A stretch of DNA of 64,000 bases from assembly GCF_055900595.2 (NCBI RefSeq), contig NZ_CM148325.1, one strand, 5' to 3'. Below, in pieces: positions 61,412 to 62,180 of the stretch. Made by a program: the position numbers and the translations under genes. Every line of letters begins with the position of its first letter. Position 1 is the stretch's first letter. A model generated the notes under the pieces. That model ran no database searches, was not told where the DNA came from, and was given only the letters and a program-made list of their open reading frames with translations.

Positions 61412-61789
61412 TTACAAATCTGCGCCAGCCGACAAATTCAGTTGAATATCTTTGTCGAGATTGCGGACCCAGCGATTATAGTTTTTATGAATTTGTCCGC
61501 CTGATGCTTGCAGGTTCTGACTATTTTCATAATTGATATCGTAGCTGGATGCCGTGTAGTTAATGCGAATTTCGGCTGAATGATCGCGTGACTGTTGACG
61601 TGCTTTAATTACGCCTTGTCCGGCTTCGGACATAATCCATTTGCGTTCAACGCCAGCTTTCAGAATCGCTTTTTTCACTTGTTCCTGGGTATGACCAGCG
61701 CTGACGGTTGAGTGAACCTGATCAATTGGCGCAGTACGCGCGCAACCCGCTAAAGCACCCACAACAGCAATAGCCGCAAACCATTTCAT
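61412..61789 (-). CDS. Small hypothetical lipoprotein upstream of the APE cluster (possibly its first gene)
   Basis: ORF 61412-61801; start taken at the internal ATG (MKWFAAIAVVGALAGCART, lipobox LAGC). Confidence 0.55.
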   Translation of the reverse strand: MKWFAAIAVVGALAGCARTAPIDQVHSTVSAGHTQEQVKKAILKAGVERKWIMSEAGQGVIKARQQSRDHSAEIRINYTASSYDINYENSQNLQASGGQIHKNYNRWVRNLDKDIQLNLSAGADL

Positions 61790-62131
61790 GTAATGTCTCA
61801 TTAGAATCCCATTAAAGTATTGTTTTTACGAGTAAAGCAAGATTTAACTGTAATTGCTGGCATCACTATTCTTTATTTAGCGAAAAAATTACTTGTGAGA
61901 TAAGTCAGTAAGTGCACATCAGAGTAAAAATTTCTGAAATGACTAAATTACTGCCAGCGGGGACCAACTATAAGTGAGTGAGAAAAATGAGGCAATAAAA
62001 ATAACAGATTGTTATCAGTGCATTCTTTGAGAGGGATTTAATCGCTATTCGGCGTTTATATATATTTGACTTAAGGAATGGTTTTTATAAATTAATTGTC
62101 TGAATAATGTTTCTTCATTTCCTCAAATCAA

Positions 62132-62162
62132 ATGGCCACTGTTAGATAAACGGTGGCCATTG
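62132..62162 (-). terminator. Weak hairpin downstream of yhhT
   Basis: 9-bp stem aatggccac / gtggccatt with 13-nt loop; only a modest U-run on the minus strand. Confidence 0.3.
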
Positions 62163-62180
62163 CCTGCTCAGGAGGTGCTA

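Follow-up and report, generated by a model that had tools for sequence, protein, structure and literature searches.

The DNA analysed here is a 64,000-nucleotide stretch of contig NZ_CM148325.1 (NCBI RefSeq assembly GCF_055900595.2), referred to below as the window, in which a small lipoprotein gene, apeA, lies on the minus strand between an AT-rich non-coding leader and apeB, at the 5' end of an aryl-polyene (APE) gene cluster. The gene heads the cluster, and we consider it probable that a promoter in the leader drives apeA and, by read-through, apeB to apeR and acpT, with an H-NS-bound zone at the 5' end and a hairpin punctuating the transcript after apeA. The AT-rich stretch itself is very probably the H-NS-bound promoter region of the cluster. 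That the lipoprotein gene is the first of the cluster is already known and is not new. What is added here is its strict co-occurrence with the cluster and wide synteny, a large unmodelled ApeA family, a conserved promoter candidate, public occupancy data for H-NS and RNA polymerase (RNAP) on a homologous cluster, and a covarying hairpin between apeA and apeB.

The initial annotation had described a lipoprotein open reading frame (ORF) with a LAGC lipobox that precedes apeB on the same strand, and had put it forward as the missing first gene of the cluster, and both points are borne out. The ORF list and the sequence give a 129-residue product that starts MRHYMKWFAAIAVVGALAGC and carries its lipobox at L17-A18-G19-C20, and this product is 65% identical to c1204 of CFT073, with 129/129 residues aligned (E = 2e-68). 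In Johnston et al., 2021 (Table 1), c1204 appears as apeA, a lipoprotein and the first gene of the CFT073 APE cluster (PMC8253772). Judged by its sequence, the lipoprotein of the window is apeA, the head gene of the cluster, an identity which has already been published. The CFT073 protein is likewise a 129-residue lipoprotein, encoded first and on the same strand before apeB, with a homologous hairpin after its gene; the two clusters differ in their position, as that of CFT073 lies in an integrase-bearing genomic island near pga/dgcT and that of the window between yhhT and acpT. The B-to-R naming of the other genes stems from a study of X. doucetiae, in which PBAD was inserted before apeB and apeB to apeR were deleted singly. 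The first ATG of apeA (61801) is likely to be the true start, because a GGGA/GGGAG Shine-Dalgarno sequence and an MKK-type basic N-terminus are kept there in all aligned genera; RefSeq uses the second ATG in E. coli, which gives a protein of 125 residues.

The gene and the cluster travel together. In a survey of 5426 complete E. coli genomes, a probe of apeA plus its leader and a probe of apeR returned identical counts, each with 825 records, 824 genomes and 832 places; 569 of the matches are of the yhhT-linked type (≥95% identity) and the remainder are of the CFT073 type (~70%). The candidacy of the lipoprotein gene would be weakened if it persisted in genomes that lack the cluster, and in E. 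coli it does not: in the remaining genomes the match to the probe begins only at the last yhhT codon, and both apeA and the leader are absent. In one such genome, yhhT is followed by acpT after 54 bp. The cluster-less junction has its break inside the last yhhT codon and retains ~17 nt of the 3' end of apeR before acpT.

Beyond E. coli, a scan of one genome per species found 148 species with an apeA homolog, and the best 80 loci were analysed, all of them named Enterobacterales except one 'Chryseobacterium sp.' record and one metagenome-assembled genome (MAG) titled only Proteobacteria. The comparison with regions upstream of APE clusters in other genomes, proposed in the initial annotation, speaks for the head position: in 77 of the 80, the gene that directly follows apeA on the same strand is apeB (57 loci) or, if apeB is missing, apeC (20 loci). 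The three exceptions are two Serratia species and one Tenebrionibacter contig, which are taken up below. An AT-rich gap precedes it in every case, the 300 bp upstream of apeA having a GC fraction of 0.23-0.52 that is always lower than that of the cluster (80/80 species loci). Among the Enterobacterales loci apeA was found at several chromosomal sites, and yhhT is directly upstream of it in 28 of the 80 species, in several genera. Because of this adjacency and the apeR remnant at the junction, the cluster-less state looks in sequence comparison like a deletion from an old arrangement and not like an insertion.

Some of these records have features of their own. The 'Chryseobacterium sp. 18061' record has an enterobacterial-type yhhT-apeA-apeC locus with a YhhT 82% identical to that of E. 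coli, and is probably a mislabelled or contaminated assembly. Insertion sequences (IS) occur at the head of CFT073-type clusters, where strain MS15046 has IS2 within the 5' end of apeA (3317-4545 of its stretch) and strain tcmA_3 has IS1 ~210 bp upstream of that gene (3584-4281 of its stretch), and these could change or supply promoter activity.

The ~380-bp AT-rich stretch that had been described between the lipoprotein gene and yhhT is indeed present, as 379 bp at 33.8% GC (31% over 61802-62130), where the APE cluster has 55.6% and the window as a whole 50.8%. It abuts the yhhT stop codon (62181-62183) exactly and contains no ORF of more than 20 codons. It is not the most AT-rich spot of the window, and the two that are (~12300-12950 and ~31750-32150; 27-30% GC in 300-bp windows) fall below it. 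Its AT-richness is more than chance, since the drop in GC upstream of apeA recurs in 80/80 loci. An alignment of 10 leader sequences, in which those of Citrobacter spp., K. indica, K. michiganensis and Superficieibacter could be aligned with the window, has a mean identity of 46%, and its sliding-window profile lies at a background of ~0.4-0.6. The strongest conservation is in the last ~45 nt before the ATG (61845-61802; 0.71-0.86), and further peaks mark a second block and the hexamers of a candidate sigma-70 promoter (0.78-0.83). The features of the region are collected in Table 1.

A consensus scan of 61200-62400 gave TTGCCT-17-TATAGT as the single promoter-like site on the minus strand (score 9/12), and none between apeA and apeB or inside apeA. 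The aligned site reads TTGATA-17-TATACT in Citrobacter, K. indica and K. michiganensis, and is less clear in Superficieibacter; the ATTG of the -35 and the TA..T of the -10 element are invariant in the 10 sequences. The predicted start would fall near 61958-61961, giving a 5' untranslated region (UTR) of ~160 nt. Together with binding of H-NS in CFT073, described below, these conserved sigma-70-like hexamers support the earlier suggestion that the stretch is the likely operon promoter and silencing site, as far as sequence and public data go. No transcription start data for the yhhT-linked locus were found in the searchable literature, and the supplements of Hustmyer et al., 2022 yielded no sigma-70 chromatin immunoprecipitation (ChIP) peak coordinates or mapped starts near c1204 (PMC9765446). 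The inverted repeat just after the yhhT stop argues, by its predicted fold, that the leader is insulated from yhhT read-through; its tail, UUUGAUUUG, has no clean U-tract, and the terminator scanner did not call it.

Table 1. Features at the 5' end of the APE cluster, in window coordinates.
Feature	Position	Strand	Description
yhhT	62181..63230	minus	AI-2E family transporter, upstream chromosomal neighbour; Pfam AI-2E_transport 1e-84; RefSeq length 1050 nt
Non-coding leader	61802..62180	minus	379 bp, 33.8% GC, between yhhT stop and apeA start
Inverted repeat after yhhT stop	62131..62161	minus	Terminator-like hairpin; 13-nt arms, 92% complementary; fold -21.9 kcal/mol, z = -2.74
Candidate sigma-70 promoter	61967..61995	minus	-35 TTGCCT (61995-61990), 17-bp spacer, -10 TATAGT (61972-61967)
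Weak CRP-like palindrome	61894..61909	minus	ACTGA-N6-TCACA, 8/10 core positions
Second conserved leader block	61869..61886	minus	TTTCGCTAAATAAAGAA; TTTAGCTTAAATAAA in relatives; conservation peak 0.76-0.79
Shine-Dalgarno sequence for first apeA ATG	61807..61810	minus	GGGA here, GGGAG in relatives; spacing and sequence kept in 16 genera or species
apeA	61412..61801	minus	129-residue lipoprotein of outer-membrane type, with a signal peptide (residues 1-19), a LAGC lipobox (61742-61753) and Ala at +2
GC-rich stem-loop	61380..61400	minus	11 nt past apeA stop; GUCGGGCCG-CUU-CGGUCCGAU; 9-bp stem, -13.3 kcal/mol; region z = -1.96
apeB	60285..61343	minus	S-adenosylmethionine (SAM)-dependent O-methyltransferase, next gene downstream; Pfam Methyltransf_2 6.6e-18 and Dimerisation2-like; RefSeq 'methyltransferase'

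Other candidate elements in and around the leader did not hold up. The high-affinity H-NS motif TCGATAAATT has two 2-mismatch matches in the leader among 72 in the window and is uninformative, and a block common to the window and CFT073, TTGGTCCC(C/T)G, is not kept in other genera and was dropped as a general motif. With Rfam at permissive thresholds, 61200-62400 returned only two chance-level snoRNA hits, and structure in the predicted 5' UTR is not significant (fold z = -1.16). The CRP-like palindrome is a lead only, as an 8/10 match is reached in 18% of shuffles, which is chance level; the aligned site of Citrobacter sp. MGH106 is a perfect TGTGA-N6-TCACA (0/2000 shuffles). The ops element recognised by RfaH reads GGCGGTAGnnTG, and GGCGGTAGCAAA, at 62240-62252 in the 3' end of yhhT, resembles its first 8 bases without the TG. 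This resemblance is probably coincidental, because it lies in protein-conserved coding sequence and APE is not among the RfaH-bound loci of Hustmyer et al.

Occupancy of the homologous cluster by H-NS and RNAP can be read from Data set S1A of Hustmyer et al., 2022, which holds ChIP values for CFT073 in rich defined medium at an optical density (OD) of 0.4 (PMC9765446). The ratio of immunoprecipitate to input (IP/input) for H-NS is 17.21 on c1204 (apeA) and 7.72 on c1203 (apeB), both flagged as 'H-NS bound'; it falls to 1.65 on c1202, then 1.16, with ~1.2 or less over the other cluster genes read (c1186-c1190, c1198-c1201), and is 0.85 on the divergent neighbour c1205 (PMC9765446). The beta subunit of RNAP stands at 3.36 on apeA, 2.73 on apeB and 2.83 on apeC, and at ~0.9 on distal genes, and there is no drop at the hairpin position between apeA and apeB (PMC9765446). 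A spike of 10.47 on c1201 (apeD, 30656-31477 of the CFT073 stretch), whose neighbours have 1.7-2.8, may reflect a promoter within the cluster, pausing or a start on the antisense strand. Both apeA and apeB are placed in 'class IV', the ~3% of genes which are bound by H-NS yet have strong RNAP signal (PMC9765446). Other clusters of this class, such as kps and wzx, share the AT-rich leader before a long accessory operon, high H-NS on the first genes and the presence of RNAP, and the APE cluster differs from them in being absent from the RfaH-bound loci listed by Hustmyer et al. (PMC9765446). As we read them, these values speak for H-NS nucleating at the cluster's 5' end and for transcription entering via apeA.

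The distance between apeA and apeB depends on the start codon chosen. The 59 bp given in the initial annotation is right for the GTG start (61352) of the mechanically called ORF, and does not stand for the ATG at 61343, which is the RefSeq start, is also kept in CFT073 and gives 68 bp. Within this gap, 36 nt before the ATG, lies the stem-loop. A hairpin of -10 kcal/mol or lower occurs within 90 nt of the apeA stop in 79 of 82 loci, mostly beginning within ~20 nt, and the 50 nt past the stop have a mean minimum free energy (MFE) of -14.8 vs -7.7 for shuffles. Across 27 distinct sequences of the enterobacterial type all 9 pairs are maintained, 3 of them with compensatory double changes, and Xenorhabdus, Dickeya, Brenneria, Mangrovibacter and Raoultella have unrelated hairpin sequences at the same position. 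The tail in the window, AAUAAUUUAA, has 4 T in 10, and the scanner called no terminator on this strand; because a U-tract is absent, 61380-61400 does not qualify as an intrinsic terminator in the window. The conserved fold suggests a partial decoupling of apeA from apeB to apeR. Intercistronic stem-loops and leaky terminators tune expression within operons such as papBA, puf and malEFG. The apeA hairpin is like these in being GC-rich and covarying and in following directly on a conserved structural-protein gene ahead of many enzyme genes, and is unlike them in that a U-tract occurs only in some genera.

We infer from this that transcription of apeA would start in the leader, from the candidate promoter at 61995-61967, and that apeB to apeR and acpT would most probably be transcribed by read-through from apeA. 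The leader and the 5' end of the cluster would form an H-NS-bound zone that damps expression, which fits a cluster that is weakly expressed or silent in culture. The stem-loop at 61380-61400 may punctuate the transcript, either by leaky termination or by stabilising the 3' end, and could let the amount of the lipoprotein differ from that of the 17 downstream enzymes and transporters.

A number of observations weigh against this account. The -35 element of the window is weaker than that of its relatives and its site reaches no more than 9/12; taken together, the sites of the promoter scan are not enriched above shuffles (4 sites vs 2.6 expected), and the best promoter match of CFT073 lies elsewhere (TTGACA-18-TATATT at -118). 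The occupancy data come from the paralogous CFT073 cluster type (~70% identity), whose apeA leader is mostly unalignable with that of the window, and not from the yhhT-linked copy. Others are compatible with a separate apeA unit, in which apeA would be monocistronic, running from the leader promoter to the hairpin as its terminator, and apeB to apeR and acpT would be transcribed from a promoter of their own at or after the end of apeA. This is the alternative we take most seriously, and although unlikely in our judgement it is retained as the main rival because of Serratia and Tenebrionibacter arrangements and a result from X. doucetiae. In S. liquefaciens and S. proteamaculans apeA is divergent from apeC, and in Tenebrionibacter intestinalis an orphan apeA is kept together with a hairpin. 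In X. doucetiae, PBAD placed before apeB was sufficient for full APE-lipids. A tail rich in T, as is typical of terminators (at least 6 T in 10), follows the hairpin in 13/82 loci, among them Dickeya, Brenneria, Superficieibacter, Edwardsiella and some Xenorhabdus, and the covarying element after the apeA stop and the RNAP spike on c1201, as a hint of internal starts, point the same way. Read-through is nevertheless favoured over two units, because neither the 36-nt spacer before the apeB ATG nor apeA itself has a promoter-like site, synonymous-site variability is flat over the last third of apeA, in-frame replacement of apeA leaves pigmentation at the wild-type level, and RNAP is continuous over apeA, apeB and apeC in CFT073; the T-poor tail of the window, where no terminator was called, also speaks against a separate unit. 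A promoter embedded in the 3' third of apeA had been considered, as raw synonymous-site entropy is lower there, but the signal vanished after normalising for codon degeneracy. Normalised variability does dip at codons 86-95 (61517-61546; 0.47 vs 0.63-0.84), which may be chance or a short embedded element.

Two further readings concern the leader. It could be mainly a silencing or regulatory platform, with a long 5' UTR or several regulator sites (for H-NS, perhaps CRP and RpoS-dependent factors), and a start within the conserved 45 nt before the ATG and not at 61960. The conservation maximum at 61845-61802 and the second block at 61886-61869 would agree with this, as would the perfect palindrome in one Citrobacter, the H-NS signal in CFT073 and a report that O-island 138 (OI-138) genes are 2-6 fold higher in an rpoS mutant of EDL933. 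We nonetheless find it improbable, as the proximal 150 nt of the window leader hold no site of 9/12 or better, the proximal conservation is at least partly that of the ribosome-binding region, and the CRP match of the window is at chance. At the far end, the lipoprotein gene might be an unrelated passenger and the AT-rich stretch a scar left when an island inserted, without any role in APE expression; the lack of a recognised domain in ApeA and the pigmentation of the deletion mutant could be read in this way. The strict co-occurrence in E. coli and the synteny in 77/80 species and in remote relatives at the level of phyla contradict it, the mutant lacks the mature APE-lipid, and the finding of yhhT next to apeA in 28 species points to an old arrangement, from which K-12-like strains arose by deletion and not by insertion, so that we give this reading hardly any credence. 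A leader promoter with read-through and a punctuating hairpin thus remains the reading that we prefer.

As for the lipoprotein itself, its lipobox cysteine is kept by each of 15 close and 11 remote homologs, and the residue at +2 is Ala, Val or Ser among homologs and never Asp. By the Lol +2 rule, this residue steers the sorting of lipoproteins. For ApeA, lipidation at Cys20 is predicted, followed by Lol-dependent sorting to the outer membrane; once there, it may act with ApeM (MMPL), ApeL (LolA-like) and ApeN (DUF3261) when the APE-lipid is finally placed or assembled. The protein matches no Pfam or NCBIfam model, and the LptM/YifL label attached to some homologs does not apply, as the match to NF047847, at 11.9 bits, stays below the cut-off of 27.7 and covers only residues 1-20, the signal peptide. 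A search of PDB sequences found no relative of ApeA. An AlphaFold2 (AF2) model (predicted local distance difference test, pLDDT, 81) suggests a KA1/BamC-N/helix-grip-like fold, and the resemblance to the KA1 domain, the BamC N-terminal domain and the TBP-like and SRPBCC (helix-grip) folds, at 5-14% identity, does not establish a function. For apeA of CFT073, present on a cosmid in E. coli Top10, an in-frame deletion has been shown to leave wild-type pigmentation while the peak of the mature APE-lipid is gone (PMC8253772). Our best guess is that ApeA acts in the delivery or assembly of the APE-lipid at the outer membrane, because its +2 residue fits such sorting, the deletion loses the mature lipid, and remote apeA genes adjoin those for LolA and MMPL proteins; this role has already been proposed by Johnston et al. 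(PMC8253772).

The family is unexpectedly large. Word-index protein searches had suggested that it is confined to Enterobacterales, and this was overturned by an exhaustive profile search of 1.84 billion representatives, which found 3289 clusters (50% identity) at E ≤1e-3 and 1698 at ≤1e-10; ten sampled members contained no Pfam domains. The remote single-domain members (27-42% identity) retain the lipobox cysteine and the motifs R-x-H, Y-x-I-x-Y-x-x-S-x-N-L and I-H-x-x-Y-N-x-W, and all six of the sampled contigs place them in APE-type clusters. A Rhodospirillaceae MAG has such a member at the head of the cluster before apeC, another adjoins a START-domain gene ahead of apeC, three lie between an acyltransferase gene and ApeP-LolA-MMPL-type genes (with DUF3261 recognised in one), and one is convergent with genes for ketosynthase (KS), chain-length factor (CLF) and ketoreductase (KR). 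Two multi-domain forms lie outside APE contexts. In the START-associated cluster (493-1962 of its stretch), a second small Cys-containing protein (15% identity) precedes the ApeA-like gene, and the START-domain gene follows, then apeC; START, too, is a fold that binds lipids.

The locus in the window is yhhT-acpT of E. coli, which is O-island 138 in O157:H7. In the RefSeq annotation of a record 100% identical to the window the core set of the APE cluster is intact, comprising two KS, CLF, two acyl carrier proteins (ACPs), the ApeI/ApeP dehydratases, KR, MMPL transporter, LolA-like protein, DUF3261 protein, GT2, acyltransferase, thioesterase and AMP-ligase, and within the window apeB, apeC and apeD have Pfam support. 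By comparison, the AMP-dependent synthetase gene apeH (14966-16327 of its stretch) and the lysophospholipid acyltransferase gene apeD (17405-18226) of O157:H7 strain 7386WT are annotated as pseudogenes with internal stops, and the APE cluster of that strain may, on this sequence, be non-functional. At the other end of the locus, the acpT ATG (46774-46776) comes 1 nt past the apeR stop, so that acpT resembles the last gene of an operon and may be translationally coupled. The two Serratia species that have apeA and apeC divergent share an intergenic region of ~295 bp at 34-36% GC (~4687-4979 of the stretches), in which apeA must have a promoter of its own. The orphan apeA of T. intestinalis (71% identity) and its downstream hairpin lie between an Ail/Lom-type outer-membrane gene and a gene for a BapA-like giant adhesin (611-4662), on a 6-kb contig without ape biosynthetic genes.

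APE clusters have been described as the family with the widest distribution among biosynthetic gene clusters of bacteria, and have been reported to protect pathogens from oxidative stress and to promote biofilm formation (PMC8253772 among the sources). Published work on them relies on expression from a cosmid or driven by PBAD, and the 380-bp leader with its one conserved promoter candidate offers a concrete target for the study of native APE control. Tentatively, and as a conjecture that may well prove wrong, ApeA could be the founder of a large unmodelled lipoprotein family specific to APE-type clusters, standing at the outer-membrane end of a route from ApeM (MMPL) through ApeL (LolA-like) to ApeN and ApeA. 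Its KA1/helix-grip-like domain would there receive or insert the aryl-polyene lipid, and the hairpin would set its stoichiometry relative to the enzymes. The breadth of the family and its adjacency to LolA and MMPL genes in distant bacteria point to ApeA as the conserved part of the export route about which least is understood.

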